A stretch of DNA of 64,000 nucleotides, taken from NCBI RefSeq assembly GCF_054482595.1, contig NZ_CM137008.1; one strand, 5' to 3'. Position 1 is the first letter of the stretch. Every line of letters begins with the position of its first letter. Shown piece by piece: positions 3,624 through 59,202 of the stretch. The notes beneath the pieces are model-generated. The model saw only the letters and a list, made by a program, of their open reading frames with translations. It was not told the origin of the DNA and did no database searches. The position numbers and the translations under genes are program-made.

Positions 3624-4976
3624 TTAACGAAATACCACTTCTGCCCAGCGTGCCAGCCCGGCGGTGACGGAGCCAAAGTCATCGCCGCCTGCAATCGGAA
3701 TGCCCGGCAACTGTTCTGCCAGCGCTTTTTTAATCAGCGGCGAACGGGCGCTACCGCCGGTCAGGTAGATAACGTCCGGTTTTTCCTGGGCGTTATCCAG
3801 CGCCAGTTGCACCTGTTCCAGAATCCGCGCCAGTGGCTGGCTGAGGGCGCTTTCCAGCCCTTGCTGGCTAATCAGCGTAGCCAGTTCATCGCTGATAAAC
3901 GGCAGTGAGGCGCGGGTTTCCGCAGTGCTTGAAAGGGCGATTTTGCTCTCTTCTGCGCTACGCACCAGGCGATAGCTTAAACGCTGACGCCAGACTTTCT
4001 GTAACAGGGCCACTTTTTCCGGTTCGCGGGCATCGCGTACCAGATCGTTAAGCAGACGACCGTTGGCACTACTGTAGAAATCACTCTGTGCAGGAACGTC
4101 GTTGATGGCAACCGCATTCCACCACGGCAGAATCGGCAGGGCGATGCCTTTTTCGGTTTCGCCACCCATGCCCAGTAACGGCATCAGGTTTTTAAACGCC
4201 AGCGCGATATCCAGATCGTTACCGCCAATACGGCAACCACTGTGACCCAGCAGGCTGGCTTCACGATCGAGACGCGAACGCCACTGCGGCCCCATCAGCA
4301 GCAATGAACAGTCAGTCGTACCACCGCCGATATCCACCACCAGCACCCGTTTTTCTTCCTGCAAGGTGGCTTCGTAATCCAGCCCAGCCGCGACCGGCTC
4401 GTACTGGAATACCACGTCCCTGAATCCGGCACGCTTCGCCGCGCGTTCCAGAATCCCTTGCGCCTGGGTGTTTGCTTCATCACCGCCCAGCCCCTGGAAG
4501 TTGATCGGACGACCAATCACCGCCTGAGTAATCGCTTCTGGCAGCTGTGCCTGCGCCTGCTGGCGAATGTGCAACATCATTGCGCAGACCAGATCCTCAA
4601 ACAGCGCTACCTGCTGCGGTTTTAAGCCGCTGGCACCGAGGAACGATTTTGGTGATTTCACAAACCACACTTCTTCTGGATCATCAATGTACTGTGCCAG
4701 TGAGGAAAGACCGAACTGCACGCTTTTCGCCGTAACATCGATATCTTCTTCGCGGTTATAACGAATCGCCCGACGTAACAGCGCCTGCGTTTCATCGTCG
4801 TCTGCCGGAACATCATGATGGCGGTACAGCCATTCGCTTACCGCTTCACGCGTTGGCGCGCAAAGCATTGAAGGCAGCAGCGTGCTGTCGTTTTCCATTT
4901 TTAGCAAATGCGGTTTACCGTCACGCATGACCGCCACTGAACAGTTTGCTGTACCGTAATCAAAACCAATAAACAC
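3624..4976 (-). CDS. yegD: Hsp70-family (actin-like ATPase) chaperone YegD
   Basis: 450-aa ORF, N-terminal FIGFDYGTANCSVAV phosphate-1 motif of Hsp70/actin fold. Confidence 0.9.
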   Translation of the reverse strand: MFIGFDYGTANCSVAVMRDGKPHLLKMENDSTLLPSMLCAPTREAVSEWLYRHHDVPADDDETQALLRRAIRYNREEDIDVTAKSVQFGLSSLAQYIDDPEEVWFVKSPKSFLGASGLKPQQVALFEDLVCAMMLHIRQQAQAQLPEAITQAVIGRPINFQGLGGDEANTQAQGILERAAKRAGFRDVVFQYEPVAAGLDYEATLQEEKRVLVVDIGGGTTDCSLLLMGPQWRSRLDREASLLGHSGCRIGGNDLDIALAFKNLMPLLGMGGETEKGIALPILPWWNAVAINDVPAQSDFYSSANGRLLNDLVRDAREPEKVALLQKVWRQRLSYRLVRSAEESKIALSSTAETRASLPFISDELATLISQQGLESALSQPLARILEQVQLALDNAQEKPDVIYLTGGSARSPLIKKALAEQLPGIPIAGGDDFGSVTAGLARWAEVVFR

Positions 4977-13164: not shown

Positions 13165-14748
13165 TCACACCTCGTACTCCATCTCGCCATCCTTACGCAG
13201 CGGTATAATCTGCACCTTCTGCACGCGATGGCTTTCTACCTGCAACGTTTTAAGCAAATAATCCCCCACCTGAACTTCTTCGCCAGGTTTTGGAATACGC
13301 TGCAAATACTCCATCAACAGCCCGGCAATGGTGTGATATTCACGTTTTTCATCCAGCGGCAGCGGCACATATTGCACCAGATCCTCCAGCGGCATATGAC
13401 CATTCGCCGTCCAGGAACCGTCCGCATTCTTCTGAATATCATGGCGGGCGTCGATCTCTTCCACTTCGTTCGGTAAGTTACCGGCAATGGTTTCAGTGAC
13501 GTCACTTAATGTCACAATCCCTTCCACCGAGCCAAACTCATCCACCACAAAAGCAAAGTGCGTGCGGGCATTACGGAACTGCTCCAGGGCAGGTAACAAC
13601 GGCAAGGTTTCCGGGAACACCAGCGGCTGGCGAATCAACACCCGCAGGTTGAGCGGTTCGCCGCGCAGAGACTGTTGTAGCAGGTCGATAACGTGAACAA
13701 CACCGAGCAAATCTTCTGCGTCATCACCGTCGGTAACCACCAGCCGCGTATGCTGATTTCGCTCCAGCAACTGGCGGATTTCTTCTTCCGGCGCGTTGAG
13801 ATCGATATGCTCAATATCGTGGCGCGACGTCATAATGCTGCTGACGGTACGCTGGTTAAGATTAAGTACCCGCTCAATCATCCGCCGTTCCTGCGGATTA
13901 AAGATCTGCTGGTTACCATGATCCACCAGCATGGACGCGGTTTCGGCGTCCAGTTCCGCATCTTCTTTTTGCCCGCTAAGCAGGCGCATTACCGCTTCGG
14001 TAGTCCGCTGGCGCAGCGTCTGGTTAGCGGAAAGAAAACGTCGCCGGTTAAAGATAGCCAACTGATTGAGCGCCTCGATCATCACCGAGAAACCAATGGC
14101 AGCGTACAGGTAGCCTTTCGGAATGACGAAGCCGAAACCTTCTGCCACCAGGCTAAAGCCAATCATCAACAGGAAGCTTAAGCAGAGAATAACGATGGTC
14201 GGGTGACTGTTAACAAATTGCGTTAACGGCTTGCTGGCCATCAACATCAGGCTGATAGCGATAACCACGGCGGCCATCATGACCAGTAAATGGTCGACCA
14301 TCCCGACGGCGGTAATCACTGAGTCGAGTGAGAAAATGGCGTCCAGTACCACAATTTGCGTCACCACGCCCCAGAACTTCGCACCTTTGCGTTGTGTGGG
14401 ATTATTGCTGTCTTTCCCTTCCAGCCGTTCGTTCAGCTCCATCGTGGCTTTGAACAACAGGAAGAAACCACCAAACAGCATGATTAAGTCGCGGGCGCTA
14501 AAGGTAAACGAGCGGAAGCTGAACAGCGGTTGAGTCAGGGTGACCAGCCAGGAGATTGACGCCAGCAGTAACAGGCGCATTAACATTGCCAGCAGCAGCC
14601 CGGTAACCCGTGCGCGGTCACGCTGCTTCGGCGGTAGTTTTTCGGCGAGGATGGCAATAAAGACCAGGTTATCAATGCCGAGGACCAGTTCGATCACAAT
14701 CAGCGTGATTAACCCGGCCCAGATAGACGGATCGGCAATCCATTCCAT
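13165..14748 (-). CDS. yegH: TerC-family membrane protein with CBS and CorC domains (YegH)
   Basis: 527 aa from ATG at 14748 ([10 protein letters not shown]); the track ORF extends to a TTG at 14814. Confidence 0.85.
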
Positions 14749-15190
14749 AGTAAGTACAAAACCTATTCGTTGTATGACAAATGTCACAATTCGATCATGG
14801 ATAAATCGGGGCAAAAATGCAATGTTGTAGCACTATTTATCTCATATTATTTGAGGGTAATAACCTCACATTATCCCTGAATTAAAAGTGGTAATAATAA
14901 AACATTATTTAAGAAATATCGCATGTGGAGACACTATATTAAATATTGTCAACCTAAAGAAACTCCTAAAAACCATATTGAATGACACTTAATATAATTC
15001 TTAAAAATAGCCAATTACCGAATTGTTATCTTGCCTGCTATTCCGTTAGCTGTAACACTTCCTCCTGCATTATTGGAAAGCCAATATTCAATTACCATAA
15101 TGTCACCTTATATTCGGAAGTTAATTTCCGTAATAACCCTTTCTCATCAACGACTGCATGCTGAGAGGGTGTGAAAAATTAAACTAAATC

Positions 15191-15229
15191 AGTGTATTGG
15201 TAGCTAAAAAGCCAGGGGCGGTAGCGTGT
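15191..15229 (+). promoter_or_regulatory. JUMPStart element with ops (RfaH recruitment) site in the wza leader
   Basis: cagtg...ggtagc...agccaggggcggtagcgtg; ops core GGCGGTAGCGTG at 15217-15228. Confidence 0.8.
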
Positions 15230-15406
15230 CTGGATGCCTGAAAGACCAGTCTGAATTATTCTGTCAATAGCCTGCGGATGAAATCAATTTTTTTAGGACT
15301 GATGCCAGTTAAATTTTTATTCAATTAACTGCAAGGTAAATGTGCATGGCGACATTGCTATTAATAGTGCACAGGATAATTACTCTGCCAAAGTGATAAA
15401 TAAACA

Positions 15407-16546
15407 ATGATGAAATCCAAAATGAAATTGATGCCATTATTGGTGTCAGTAACCTTGATAAGCGGTTGCACAGTACTTCCGGGCAGCAATATGTCGACGA
15501 TGGGCAAAGACGTCATCAAACAGCAGGACGCTGATTTCGATCTCGACAAAATGGTGAATGTTTATCCGCTGACCCCGCGCCTGATTGACCAATTACGCCC
15601 ACGCCCGAATGTAGCGCGCCCCAATATGACGCTGGAAAGTGAGATCGCGAATTACCAGTATCGCGTCGGGCCGGGGGACGTTCTTAATGTCACCGTCTGG
15701 GATCACCCGGAACTCACCACGCCAGCCGGTCAGTACCGCAGCTCCAGCGACACCGGCAACTGGGTACAGCCTGACGGCACTATGTTTTACCCGTATATCG
15801 GCAAGGTCCACGTAGTCGGGAAAACGCTCGCTGAAATCCGCAGTGATATTACCGGGCGCTTAGCGACGTACATCGCTGACCCGCAGGTGGACGTTAATAT
15901 CGCCGCCTTCCGCTCACAAAAGGCCTATATCTCCGGTCAGGTGAATAAATCCGGTCAACAGGCGATCACCAACGTGCCACTGACTATTCTCGACGCCATC
16001 AACGCCGCAGGTGGCCTGACCGACACCGCTGACTGGCGCAACGTGGTGCTAACACACAATGGTCGTGAAGAGCGCATTTCTTTGCAGGCGCTGATGCAAA
16101 ACGGCGACCTCAACCAGAATCGCCTGCTTTACCCCGGCGATATTCTCTACGTGCCACGTAATGATGATCTGAAAGTATTTGTGATGGGTGAAGTGAAGAA
16201 ACAGAGCACCCTGAAAATGGACTTTAGCGGCATGACCCTGACTGAAGCCCTGGGCAATGCTGAAGGCATCGACATGACCACCTCCAACGCCAGCGGCATC
16301 TTTGTCATTCGTCCGCTGAAAGGCGAGGGCGGGCGTAACGGCAAGATTGCCAATATCTACCAGCTGGATATGTCCGATGCCACGTCGCTGGTGATGGCGA
16401 CAGAATTCCGCCTGCAACCTTATGACGTGGTGTATGTCACCACCGCCCCGGTTTCCCGCTGGAACCGTCTGATCAATCAGTTGCTGCCAACTATTAGCGG
16501 TGTCCGTTACATGACGGATACAGCCAGCGACATTCATAACTGGTAA
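15407..16546 (+). CDS. wza: Colanic acid outer-membrane polysaccharide export lipoprotein
   Basis: 379-aa ORF, lipoprotein signal (LISGCT), matches Wza. Confidence 0.95.
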
Positions 16547-19160: not shown

Positions 19161-19169
19161 CGACATCCG

Positions 19170-19280
19170 CTGTCGGATGCGATGCTGACGCATCTTATCC
19201 GACCTACCTTCACGCCGCATCCGGCAAGCAAACCAGCTCCGTAGGCCGGATAAGGCGCTCACGCCGCATCCGGCAACAGA
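19170..19280. repeat. REP/BIME cluster between wzc and wcaA
   Basis: Several REP-like palindromes (gatgcgacgc / cttatccg / gccggatgcggcgtg types). Confidence 0.65.
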
Positions 19281-19337
19281 ACCCGTAAACAAGCTTATAA
19301 ACCGGCAGAACATCTCGATACTCCGGGAGAACAACCT

Positions 19338-29755: not shown

Positions 29756-29844
29756 ATGAATGCGAAACCGAGATGTAAATAACGACAAAAACAAAATTGG
29801 CCGTTTCGGTCAGGGCCAACTATTGCCTGAAAAAGGGTAACGAC

Positions 29845-34187: not shown

Positions 34188-34358
34188 AAACGCCTTATCC
34201 ATCCTACGGTTCTGTGCTCGGGTCTTGTAGGCCTGATAAGACGCGTCAGCGTCGCATCAGGCACTGAATGCCGGATGCGGCGTGAACGCCTTATCCGGCC
34301 TACGGTTCTGTGCTCGGGTCTTGTAGGCCTGATAAGACGTGCCAGCGTCGCATCAGGC
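34188..34358. repeat. BIME: two near-identical ~72-bp REP-containing units in tandem
   Basis: Unit at 34191-34262 and unit at 34287-34358 differ at only a few positions. Confidence 0.75.
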
Positions 34359-45228: not shown

Positions 45229-46244
45229 AAGTTGATGCAGTAATCTTATGGGTAGATGGTAATGATCCAAAATGGCAGGAAGAATACAATAAATATTGTA
45301 AGCCGGCCTCTCGAATTGAGAATGGTGTACAAAGATATAGAGATTGGGATACACTACGATATGTAATTCGTGGAATAGAATATAACCTTCCTTGGATTGA
45401 CAAAATACATTTTGTGACATGTGGTCAAAAGCCAAGTTGGATGGTTGGATATCATCCAAAACTCAATTTTGTACATCATAACGATATTTTTGAGAATGAT
45501 ACATTTTTACCCACATTTAATTCAAGTGCAATAGAGTTAAATCTGTCAAGGATAAAGGGATTAAGTGAGAGGTTTATATATTTTAATGATGATATGCTTG
45601 TGCTTAAAAACACTCCTCTTCAGAGGTTTTTTGTAAATGATTTACCGGTGGATTTTTTAATTGAAGCTTTCCCACGGCGTGGGTTATTGTATGAAAAAAT
45701 ACGTTCCAACTCAACTTGGGTTTCAATGATAAATAATTGCACTTCGCTCATAAATAGAGTGTATCACAAGAATAAATATATACAGGATAATCGTAATTTA
45801 TATTATAACATGAACTATGGACGACATGTCATTGCTAATGTACTGGCGTCCCCTTTTAAGCAGTTTTTGGCTTTTAAACACTATCATCATCCTCAAGCAT
45901 ATCTTAAAAAGACATTACAATCCGTTGAGCGTGAGTTCCCAGTGGAGTTTAACTTAACATGCAAATCTAGATTCCGAGAACATGATAATATCTCACAGGC
46001 GTTGTTTAGATATTACCAATTGGTAACTGGTAGTTTTTATCCGTGCTATTATAATGATCATGCCTGTGTTAATGTAGTAAATAAAAAATCTGCAAGCCAG
46101 TGTATTGAAGCTCTTCATCAAAAACGATTTGTGTGTATAAATGATGAGATTAATGACGACTTAGATGATAGTTCAATTTTAATAAATGATATAATTAAAG
46201 AGTTGGATTTGATTCTTCCAAATAAATCAAGTTTTGAGATCTAA
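45225..46244 (+). CDS. Stealth-family hexose-1-phosphate transferase (glycosyl-phosphotransferase)
   Basis: 339-aa ORF; Stealth CR1-like DAVILWVDGNDPKW, CR2-like TLRYVIRGIEYNLPWIDKIHFVT, CR3-like YFNDDM. Confidence 0.75.
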   Translation: MKVDAVILWVDGNDPKWQEEYNKYCKPASRIENGVQRYRDWDTLRYVIRGIEYNLPWIDKIHFVTCGQKPSWMVGYHPKLNFVHHNDIFENDTFLPTFNSSAIELNLSRIKGLSERFIYFNDDMLVLKNTPLQRFFVNDLPVDFLIEAFPRRGLLYEKIRSNSTWVSMINNCTSLINRVYHKNKYIQDNRNLYYNMNYGRHVIANVLASPFKQFLAFKHYHHPQAYLKKTLQSVEREFPVEFNLTCKSRFREHDNISQALFRYYQLVTGSFYPCYYNDHACVNVVNKKSASQCIEALHQKRFVCINDEINDDLDDSSILINDIIKELDLILPNKSSFEI

Positions 46245-46250
46245 ATTAAT

Positions 46251-47069
46251 ATGAATTCGTTTGATGAGTTTAATGTGCTACTATCTCTTTATAAAAATGA
46301 GAGCCCCGATAATCTGGATGCGTGTTTTCAAAGCATAAGCACTCAATCTTTGAAAAGATTTAAAATAATACTTGTCATAGATGGTCCTATTTCTTCTGAG
46401 TTAAATGAGGTTGTCGGAAAGTGGAAGTCACTATTACCTATTAAAATTATCAATCTCGAACGTAATGTTGGCTTAGGTAATGCTTTAAATATAGGTTTGA
46501 AATATTGCAGTTGTGATTATGTGTTTCGTATGGATACAGATGATATTTGTCATCCGGATAGGTTTTCCATACAATTTAGTTATCTGAGGAAACACCCCGA
46601 TATTGATTTGCTTGGTGGACAGATTGTAGAATTCCATGAATGCATAGAGGAGCCTAACGGTATGCGGTTAGTACCTTCTAAATATGAGGAAATTCTTCAG
46701 TATTGTAAACTTAAAAACCCATTTAATCATATGACAGTTGTGTTTAAAAGAGAGAGTGTACTTAAGGTCGGTGGATATAAACATCATTTATATATGGAGG
46801 ATTATAATCTTTGGCTTCGTATGATATCAATTGGTTGCAAAGTGGAAAATTTAGATGATGTGATTGTTTTTGCCCGAACAGACGTGAATTCATTAATGAG
46901 ACGTAGAGGGTGGCAATATGTTAAAAGTGAATGGAAATTAGCACTGTTAAAAATAAAGTTAAGAATAAATAATCCTATTGTTTCTTTATCTGTTTTTATC
47001 CTCCGATCTATACCTCGATTATTACCTATTATGTTGATTCGTAGAATTTATGCCCACAACCGCAAGTGA
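46251..47069 (+). CDS. Glycosyltransferase family 2
   Basis: 272-aa ORF; FNVLLSLYKNE ... VIDGP ... MDTDD motifs. Confidence 0.8.
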   Translation: MNSFDEFNVLLSLYKNESPDNLDACFQSISTQSLKRFKIILVIDGPISSELNEVVGKWKSLLPIKIINLERNVGLGNALNIGLKYCSCDYVFRMDTDDICHPDRFSIQFSYLRKHPDIDLLGGQIVEFHECIEEPNGMRLVPSKYEEILQYCKLKNPFNHMTVVFKRESVLKVGGYKHHLYMEDYNLWLRMISIGCKVENLDDVIVFARTDVNSLMRRRGWQYVKSEWKLALLKIKLRINNPIVSLSVFILRSIPRLLPIMLIRRIYAHNRK

Positions 47070-48678: not shown

Positions 48679-48821
48679 GTGCACAGAAAACCCCCAGCTA
48701 GGCTGGGGGTTCCGGAAAGCTATCAGCTTTGAGCCAGTTATTAAAACCCCTTTTGATTTGTTAAAACACCTTGCGGTCTGGCAACTGCAAGTGTCAAACA
48801 AGAAATCAAAAGGGGGTCCCA

Positions 48822-50895: not shown

Positions 50896-51876
50896 ATGAG
50901 AGTAGAAAATAATAATGTTTCTGGGCAAAACCATGACCAGGAACAGATTGATTTGATTGATTTACTGGTGCAGTTGTGGCGTGGCAAGATGACAATTATC
51001 ATCTCTGTCATTGTTGCTATTGCCCTGGCTATTGGGTATTTGGCGGTAGCGAAGGAGAAATGGACGTCAACAGCAATTATCACTCAGCCTGACGTGGGGC
51101 AAATTGCTGGCTATAACAATGCCATGAATGTTATCTATGGTCAGGCTGCACCTAAAGTGCCGGATTTACAGGAGGCGTTAATTGGTCGCTTCAGTTCTGC
51201 CTTCTCTGCATTAGCAGAAACGCTGGATAATCAGAAAGAACCAGAAAAACTTACCATCGAACCTTCTGTAAAGAACCAGCAATTACCATTGACTGTTTCT
51301 TATGTTGGGCAAACTGCAGAGGACGCACAAATGAAATTGGCCCAATACATTCAGCAAGTTGATGATAAAGTAAATCAAGAGCTAGAAAAGGATCTCAAGG
51401 ACAACCTTGCTTTGGGACGGAAAAACTTGCAGGACTCTTTAAGAACTCAGGAAGTGGTTGCGCAGGAGCAGAAAGATCTGCGTATCCGTCAGATTCAGGA
51501 AGCGTTGCAGTATGCGAATCAGGCGCAGGTGACAAAACCGCAGATTCAACAGACTGGCGAAGATATCACACAAGATACGTTGTTCCTTTTGGGGAGCGAA
51601 GCGCTGGAGTCGATGATTAAGCATGAGGCAACTCGTCCGTTGGTGTTTTCGCCAGACTACTATCAGACTCGTCAAAACCTGCTGGATATCGAAAACTTAA
51701 AGGTTGACGATCTTGATATTCATGCTTACCGTTATGTGATGAAACCGACGTTACCTATTCGTCGCGATAGCCCGAAAAAGGCAATTACCTTGATTCTGGC
51801 GGTGCTGCTGGGCGGCATGGTTGGCGCGGGGATTGTGTTGGGGCGTAATGCTCTGCGTAATTACAACTCGAAGTAA
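50896..51876 (+). CDS. wzzB: O-antigen chain-length determinant (polysaccharide co-polymerase 1)
   Basis: 326 aa from ATG at 50896 (MRVENNNVSG); two TM segments flanking a periplasmic coiled-coil region. Confidence 0.9.
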   Translation: MRVENNNVSGQNHDQEQIDLIDLLVQLWRGKMTIIISVIVAIALAIGYLAVAKEKWTSTAIITQPDVGQIAGYNNAMNVIYGQAAPKVPDLQEALIGRFSSAFSALAETLDNQKEPEKLTIEPSVKNQQLPLTVSYVGQTAEDAQMKLAQYIQQVDDKVNQELEKDLKDNLALGRKNLQDSLRTQEVVAQEQKDLRIRQIQEALQYANQAQVTKPQIQQTGEDITQDTLFLLGSEALESMIKHEATRPLVFSPDYYQTRQNLLDIENLKVDDLDIHAYRYVMKPTLPIRRDSPKKAITLILAVLLGGMVGAGIVLGRNALRNYNSK

Positions 51877-59006: not shown

Positions 59007-59061
59007 TTTCTTATTCCTCTTTAAACCTGTCTGAACCGTTATCAACCGCGCAATAAAAAAG

Positions 59062-59094
59062 CCCCCGGAAGGTGATCTTCCGGGGGCTTTCTCA
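59062..59094 (-). terminator. his attenuator terminator hairpin
   Basis: Minus strand reads agcccccggaag-atcac-cttccgggggct followed by UUUUUAUU, between hisL and hisG. Confidence 0.85.
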
Positions 59095-59151
59095 TGCGTT
59101 CATGCACCACTGGAAGATCTGAATGTCTTCCAGCACACATCGCCTGAAAGA

Positions 59152-59202
59152 CTAGTCAGGATGATGGTGATGATGGTGGTGTTTAAATTGAACGCGTGTC
59201 AT
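59152..59202 (-). CDS. hisL: his operon leader peptide
   Basis: Minus strand encodes MTRVQFKHHHHHHHPD-stop, with seven consecutive His codons. Confidence 0.9.
   Translation of the reverse strand: MTRVQFKHHHHHHHPD

Follow-up and report, generated by a model that had tools for sequence, protein, structure and literature searches.

The 39-nucleotide (nt) element cagtgtattggtagctaaaaagccaggggcggtagcgtg, found on the plus strand at positions 15190–15228 of the 64-kb stretch of DNA analysed here (the window), is very probably the JUMPstart of the colanic acid (wza–wcaM, ‘cps/wca’) operon, with a 3′ end that forms a canonical, RfaH-recruiting ops. Family model, strand, position and conservation agreed in placing a JUMPstart/ops element in the wza leader, as an earlier, sequence-only reading had proposed. 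The Rfam JUMPstart model (RF01707) matched at 15190–15228 with a score well above the gathering threshold (57.3 bits versus 35; E = 1.6 × 10−10 for the whole window), the match spanning model positions 1–38 of 38, and the same element is present in K-12. The string quoted in the sequence-only reading was recovered on the plus strand, but one base upstream of the coordinates given there (15191–15229). Its ops 12-mer, GGCGGTAGCGTG, occupies 15217–15228 on the non-template (sense) strand for wza and is an exact match to the pattern GGCGGTAGNNTG, bearing out the description of the ops core as perfect. Measured against the 12-nt GGCGGTAGnnTG form, the RfaH-contact bases C3, G4, G5, T6, A7 and G8 are all intact, as are T11 and G12. 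The element also carries the GGTAGC-N15-GGTAGC direct repeat, a described JUMPstart feature, with the upstream copy at 15200–15205 (plus strand) and the second at 15221–15226, inside ops. By published ops numbering, the pause falls at T11 (15227 here) and is followed by G12 (15228). The placement of the element is that of a JUMPstart as well: it is non-coding, co-oriented with the downstream polysaccharide cluster and separated from wza by 178 nt (ops end to the ATG at 15407), close to the ~180 bp first estimated.

The first gene of the operon, wza (15407–16546, plus strand), was recognized by its Pfam domains (Poly_export, SLBB_2 and Wza_C) and by the wza annotation in K-12 and other genomes, and the divergent yegH (13165–14748, minus strand; TerC family, from K-12 annotation and alignment and the Pfam domains TerC, CBS and CorC_HlyC) bounds the intergenic region on the other side. 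With the yegH ATG at 14748 on the minus strand, as in the K-12 annotation, the non-coding gap measures 658 bp (14749–15406); the earlier figure of ~590 bp corresponds to the longest yegH open reading frame (ORF), whose start codon is the TTG at 14814. Downstream, the colanic acid operon extends from wza to wcaM (15407–38322, plus strand; ~23 kb) and comprises 20 co-oriented genes rather than the 19 previously counted, each of the 20 annotated K-12 wza–wcaM genes having a matching ORF in the window (96.6–99.6% identity by blastn). The leader is AT-rich (28–40% GC versus 50–59% in the flanks), a composition that fits H-NS binding. No intrinsic terminators were found in the wza leader, and terminator-like sites inside the operon were not enriched (25 versus 23.3 expected), so that whatever obstacle RfaH overcomes there (Rho, H-NS or pauses) is invisible in the sequence.

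The leader was next compared with K-12 and with other Escherichia coli. Between window positions 14740 and 15420, 680 of 681 bases are identical to the MG1655 yegH–wza region, and the lone difference, at 14828, leaves the 39-mer intact; the comparison with the K-12 leader suggested by the sequence-only reading, for which absence of the element was to count against it, thus found the element present. The K-12 colanic acid (cps/wza) JUMPstart/ops is the same element in the same place between yegH and wza, in a different host strain: the window carries an O160-type O-antigen cluster, and its identity to MG1655 is 99.6% near wza and 96–98% farther along. Hobbs and Reeves (in 1994) and Stout (in 1996) are said to have described this K-12 JUMPstart/ops. 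Among 5,426 complete E. coli genomes, the leader was present in 4,838, in a single copy each, and the 39-mer was 100% identical in 4,140 (one copy per genome), with one mismatch in a further 437; in the two variants inspected, the changes were confined to 39-mer positions 5–7 and ops was intact. The JUMPstart is unannotated in the sampled RefSeq records. Many RefSeq E. coli genomes have a 49-amino-acid (aa) ‘hypothetical protein’ annotated within the yegH–wza gap (~14949–15098, minus strand), which runs across the conserved promoter blocks and is probably an annotation artefact. In one genome (NZ_CP115186.1; H1, strain MY203L1, a duck isolate), an IS1A interrupts the counterpart of window positions 14700–15450, where it could alter colanic acid expression.

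To place the element in a broader context, we scanned for Wza proteins in one genome per species, which yielded 80 loci from at least 18 named Enterobacteriaceae genera, and assembled a set of 80 leaders (the window and 79 loci with upstream sequence). An ops-type 12-mer was found upstream of wza in 77 of the 80, and in 76 of the 80 the distance from the end of ops to the ATG was 174–187 nt (mode, 178). Mean identity of the other 79 leaders to the window rose from 0.58 for the intergenic region to 0.86 for the JUMPstart and 0.96 for ops. Across 58 distinct JUMPstart sequences, ops positions C3–C9 and T11 were invariant, G2 and G12 were at least 90% conserved and G10 was free to vary, and the first copy of the direct repeat read GGTAAC in roughly half the other genera. 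Published mutational analysis found RfaH recruitment lost in G4C, G5A, A7T and G8C and reduced in C3G and T6A; pausing at U11 requires G12, and the hairpin in the non-template DNA owes its shape to a C3:G8 pair (PMC5995543). The cross-genus pattern of ops conservation matches what these data lead one to expect: strong purifying selection tracks the bases that RfaH needs. Natural exceptions were few. A Citrobacter ops (L005, Citrobacter sp. On2M, at 2813) carries a G2-to-A variant, GACGGTAGCGTG, and its element still scores 41.8 bits, and in Citrobacter amalonaticus S646 (L045, 2666–2974) the spacer from ops to the wza ATG is lengthened to 296 nt by an insertion of ~118 nt. In three leaders of the Pseudescherichia clade (L035, L036 and L039; ~330 nt upstream of wza), no JUMPstart was found within 3 kb in an Rfam scan at the gathering score, nor any match in 7 kb. 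These leaders are ~90 nt shorter and retain the promoter blocks and an unchanged ATG-adjoining block, which looks like natural loss of the JUMPstart; the three cases suggest that some lineages can do without the element.

The window holds a second JUMPstart (40845–40883, plus strand; Rfam, 51.1 bits), with its ops, GGCGGTAGCTTG, at 40872–40883, between galF (39718–40611) and the O160-type O-antigen genes and 77 nt before the wzx ATG (40961). The O-antigen cluster (40961–47069) was assigned to the O160 family by annotation in identical genomes. Like the wza copy, this O-antigen (rfb) JUMPstart is a leader element of a long polysaccharide operon, and the two share 33 of 39 bases, including GCCAGGGGCGGTAGC and the TG pause dinucleotide. 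They differ at ops positions 9–10 (CT in the O-antigen copy, CG in the wza copy), in the distance to the first gene (77 versus 178 nt) and in setting, the O-antigen copy following galF rather than lying in a divergent promoter region.

Several other features were recognized in the window. Within the operon, the Rfam algC RNA motif (RF02929; 78.2 bits) lies at 29791–29840 (plus strand) in the cpsB–cpsG gap, directly before the cpsG/manB start; REP-type palindromic repeats (19161–19337; gccggataaggcg...catccggc units) occupy the wzc–wcaA gap, which is ~85 nt longer than in K-12; and a naRNA4/REP match (79.7 bits; 34230–34300, minus strand) falls between wzxC and wcaK. Between wcaM and galF there is a 331-aa ORF for an NAD-dependent epimerase/dehydratase (PF01370; 38480–39475, plus strand), with no K-12 counterpart at that place. 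Farther along, Rfam matches to STnc490 (48689–48812, plus strand, downstream of gnd), the histidine operon leader (59053–59176, minus strand) and STnc240 (61916–61990, plus strand) fit the gnd–ugd–wzz–his neighbourhood.

A wza-leader JUMPstart/ops, RfaH as its binding factor and occupancy at the same site are already known and published, and the ops mechanism, RfaH occupancy and the Rcs and RfaH dependence of colanic acid given here are as reported in the literature. Stout is said by others to have found in 1996 that distal genes of the operon depend on rfaH and ops, and Navasa (in 2014) reportedly also dealt with RfaH regulation of colanic acid. The 12-nt ops, a consensus pause, is present in the leader of all RfaH-controlled operons. 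RfaH attaches to the non-template DNA of the complex paused there, is retained until transcription terminates and keeps NusG off; it can also recruit the 30S subunit to leaders lacking Shine–Dalgarno (SD) elements (PMC5995543). Colanic acid has been described as JUMPstart–RfaH antiterminated and RcsA/RcsB activated (PMC9976346; PMC3101779). The most direct parallel comes from uropathogenic E. coli strain CFT073, in which an RfaH ChIP signal was found at the wza ops GGCGGTAGCGTG, at −190 from wza, in a Δhns ΔstpA background (Hustmyer et al. 2022, PMC9765446, Data set S2): the 12-mer is identical and the offset from ops start to gene start is the same 190 nt that separates 15217 from 15407 here. 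CFT073 is nonetheless a different strain, with RfaH occupancy seen only after removal of H-NS and StpA and with the transcription start listed as NA. The ops sites of waaQ (rfaQ), hly, kps and tra share the same 12-nt consensus pause (Zuber et al. 2018, PMC5995543), of which the central GGTAG is read by the RfaH N-terminal domain in the RfaH:ops structure (PMC5995543), and the wza 12-mer is the same as that of rfaQ in CFT073 Data set S2 (PMC9765446). Unlike the colanic acid operon, these operons serve lipopolysaccharide core, haemolysin, group 2 capsule and conjugation, and in operons of this type ops and the first gene lie 40 to 634 nt apart (Data set S2).

Combining these reports with the features of the window, we propose the following course of events. 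Transcription would start at an Rcs-dependent, H-NS-silenced promoter, presumably 150–225 nt upstream of ops; RNA polymerase would transcribe into ops and pause at T11/G12 (15227/15228), where the exposed non-template strand would form a small hairpin (a C3:G8 stem presenting G5 and T6) that RfaH could recognize. RfaH would then remain on the polymerase, excluding NusG, and would suppress pausing, Rho-dependent polarity and H-NS roadblocks along the ~23-kb, 20-gene operon; it may, in addition, aid ribosome loading at the SD-less wza start.

Three other explanations of the element were weighed against this one. A chance resemblance in an AT-rich intergenic region has in its favour that the motif is short and that its 8-mer core, GGCGGTAG, occurs six times in the window (versus 1.23 expected). 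The full pattern GGCGGTAGNNTG, however, was found twice on the two strands of the window where 0.08 would be expected (none of 100 shuffles gave two), and JUMPstart context accompanies only the two leader copies. The four further 8-mer copies (14630–14641, 42104–42115 and 51042–51053 on the plus strand and 3751–3758 on the minus strand; three of them in yegH, wzx and wzz) have neither JUMPstart context nor TG at positions 11–12, and are therefore not expected to recruit RfaH. The low expectation, the Rfam score and E value and the position kept across genera refute chance as an explanation. A different objection accepts the motif as real but treats it as a conserved pause or a vestigial ops, with expression set at initiation by RcsAB and H-NS and RfaH playing a marginal part. 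Such a reading could draw on wild-type CFT073 grown in rich medium, in which the wza locus was H-NS-bound and silent with no RNA polymerase or RfaH signal (PMC9765446), and on the Pseudescherichia leaders, which have kept the rest of the leader but no JUMPstart. The silence of the wild-type locus implies that the site acts only once initiation is induced, and when silencing was lifted RfaH was indeed recruited at the wza ops (PMC9765446). The literature, moreover, treats colanic acid as RfaH-regulated (PMC9976346; PMC3101779), and over at least 18 genera it is the bases contacted by RfaH that are invariant, whereas G10, which RfaH does not need, varies. We thus consider a marginal role for RfaH extremely improbable.

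The third explanation concerns the molecule on which the signal is carried: the JUMPstart might act mainly as a structured cis-regulatory RNA in the nascent transcript, the 27 nt before ops being the functional part. Rfam classes the family among cis-regulatory RNAs and models a hairpin of 5 bp, which in the window would pair TTGGT (15197–15201) with GCCAG (15211–15215) according to the cmscan structure line (15197–15215, plus strand). Conservation of the 5′ part extends well beyond ops (0.82 identity), and the Rfam stem can pair in 99.3% of cells across the 58 distinct sequences, compared with 12–58% when the partner columns are slid. Yet no stem pair has changed on both sides: the changes are one-sided only (U–G to U–A or C–G), and two pairs never vary. 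The 39-mer RNAs were no more stable than shuffles (z = −0.03 and +0.29), the minimum free energy structure of the wza copy differs from the Rfam hairpin, and according to published work it is in non-template DNA that ops is recognized (PMC5995543). A pseudoknot-like stem (alignment columns 5–8 with 18–21) was also considered and rejected, as it pairs in only 89.7% of cells and fails in E. coli-type sequences. Since two-sided stem changes are absent and folding is no better than in shuffles, the data fit selection at the level of sequence, as for a protein/DNA signal, and do not require an RNA hairpin; a mainly RNA-based JUMPstart appears very unlikely, although a hairpin could be a layer added to the DNA signal rather than a replacement for it.

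The wza transcription start was reportedly mapped by Stout in 1996. Start coordinates were not found in the literature searched on RcsAB box, wza and transcription start, and the CFT073 Data set S2 lists NA. Candidate promoters were sought in the leader itself. The block CTTAATATAATTCTTAAAA (14988–15006, plus strand; mean identity 0.87 across species) contains the −10-like hexamers TAATAT (14990–14995) and TATAAT (14993–14998) and, as a first candidate wza promoter, would place the start near 15003–15006. An alternative, with a weaker case, is the conserved block TTGCCTGCTATTCCGTTAGCTGTAACACTTCCTC (15031–15064, plus strand; TTGCCT-16-TAACAC, identity 0.79), from which transcription might start near 15065. 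A sigma-70 scan of the leader returned a single weak site (TTGGAA-17-CATAAT, 15073–15101), fewer than expected by chance and in a poorly conserved stretch, and we did not take it as the principal promoter. All three candidates are upstream of ops, and both promoter models would put ops well downstream of the start; the conserved promoter-like blocks suggest that ops is inside the transcribed leader. Small plus-strand ORFs at 14982–15164 and 15031–15174 were considered as possible leader peptides and rejected, as they fall in the least conserved segment.

Candidate sites for Rcs activation were similarly sought upstream. The 14-bp RcsAB-box consensus, reportedly from Wehland and Bernhard, is TaAGaatatTCctA, and no 14-mer within three mismatches of this consensus was found in the leader. 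Two putative sites may nevertheless be named. Site A, TAAGAAATATCGCA (14910–14923, plus strand; identity 0.72), has the six upper-case consensus positions, T.AG.....TC..A, a loose core that is not enriched (21 found versus 22.8 expected). Site B, TAAAGAAACTCCTA (14955–14968, plus strand), a possible RcsAB or RcsB site, differs from the consensus at more than three positions but lies within the conserved block TGTCAACCTAAAGAAACTCCTAAAAA (14947–14972, plus strand; identity 0.79–0.80), and its 3′ half in other genera (ATTCCTA or AATCCTA) agrees with the 3′ half of the consensus. Literature text searches for the candidate box sequences of sites A and B returned nothing relevant.

Conservation resumes between ops and the wza ATG. 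This 178-nt leader (15229–15406, plus strand) contains three blocks, at 15255–15283, 15294–15312 and 15368–15406, with identities of 0.80, 0.90 and 0.92 across the ~80 Enterobacteriaceae leaders against the intergenic mean of 0.58, and the last of them abuts the wza start codon. Between −20 and −4, an SD core of at least 4 nt is absent from all 80 wza leaders, and RNAalifold found no consensus structure downstream of ops (−2.2 kcal/mol, the covariation term being unfavourable). Gain of an SD in the JUMPstart-less leaders was considered and rejected, since none was seen and their ATG-adjoining block is unchanged. The blocks and the fixed spacing might together represent an undescribed cis-regulatory module on top of the JUMPstart/ops function; it could, for instance, load ribosomes in concert with RfaH or be bound by an unknown factor or small RNA. 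On the conservation pattern we give such a module only a small chance, but the post-ops blocks are the only part of the locus in which something undescribed might remain.

Together, these results add to the published account of the wza JUMPstart/ops a cross-genus footprint on the RfaH-contact bases, a constant ops-to-ATG spacing and an apparent natural loss of the element from Pseudescherichia-clade leaders. Recognition of the element is useful for annotation, given that RefSeq records leave the JUMPstart unannotated, and for engineering colanic acid production. The element would also explain how a ~23-kb, 20-gene capsule operon is transcribed to its end after it has been switched on by Rcs.
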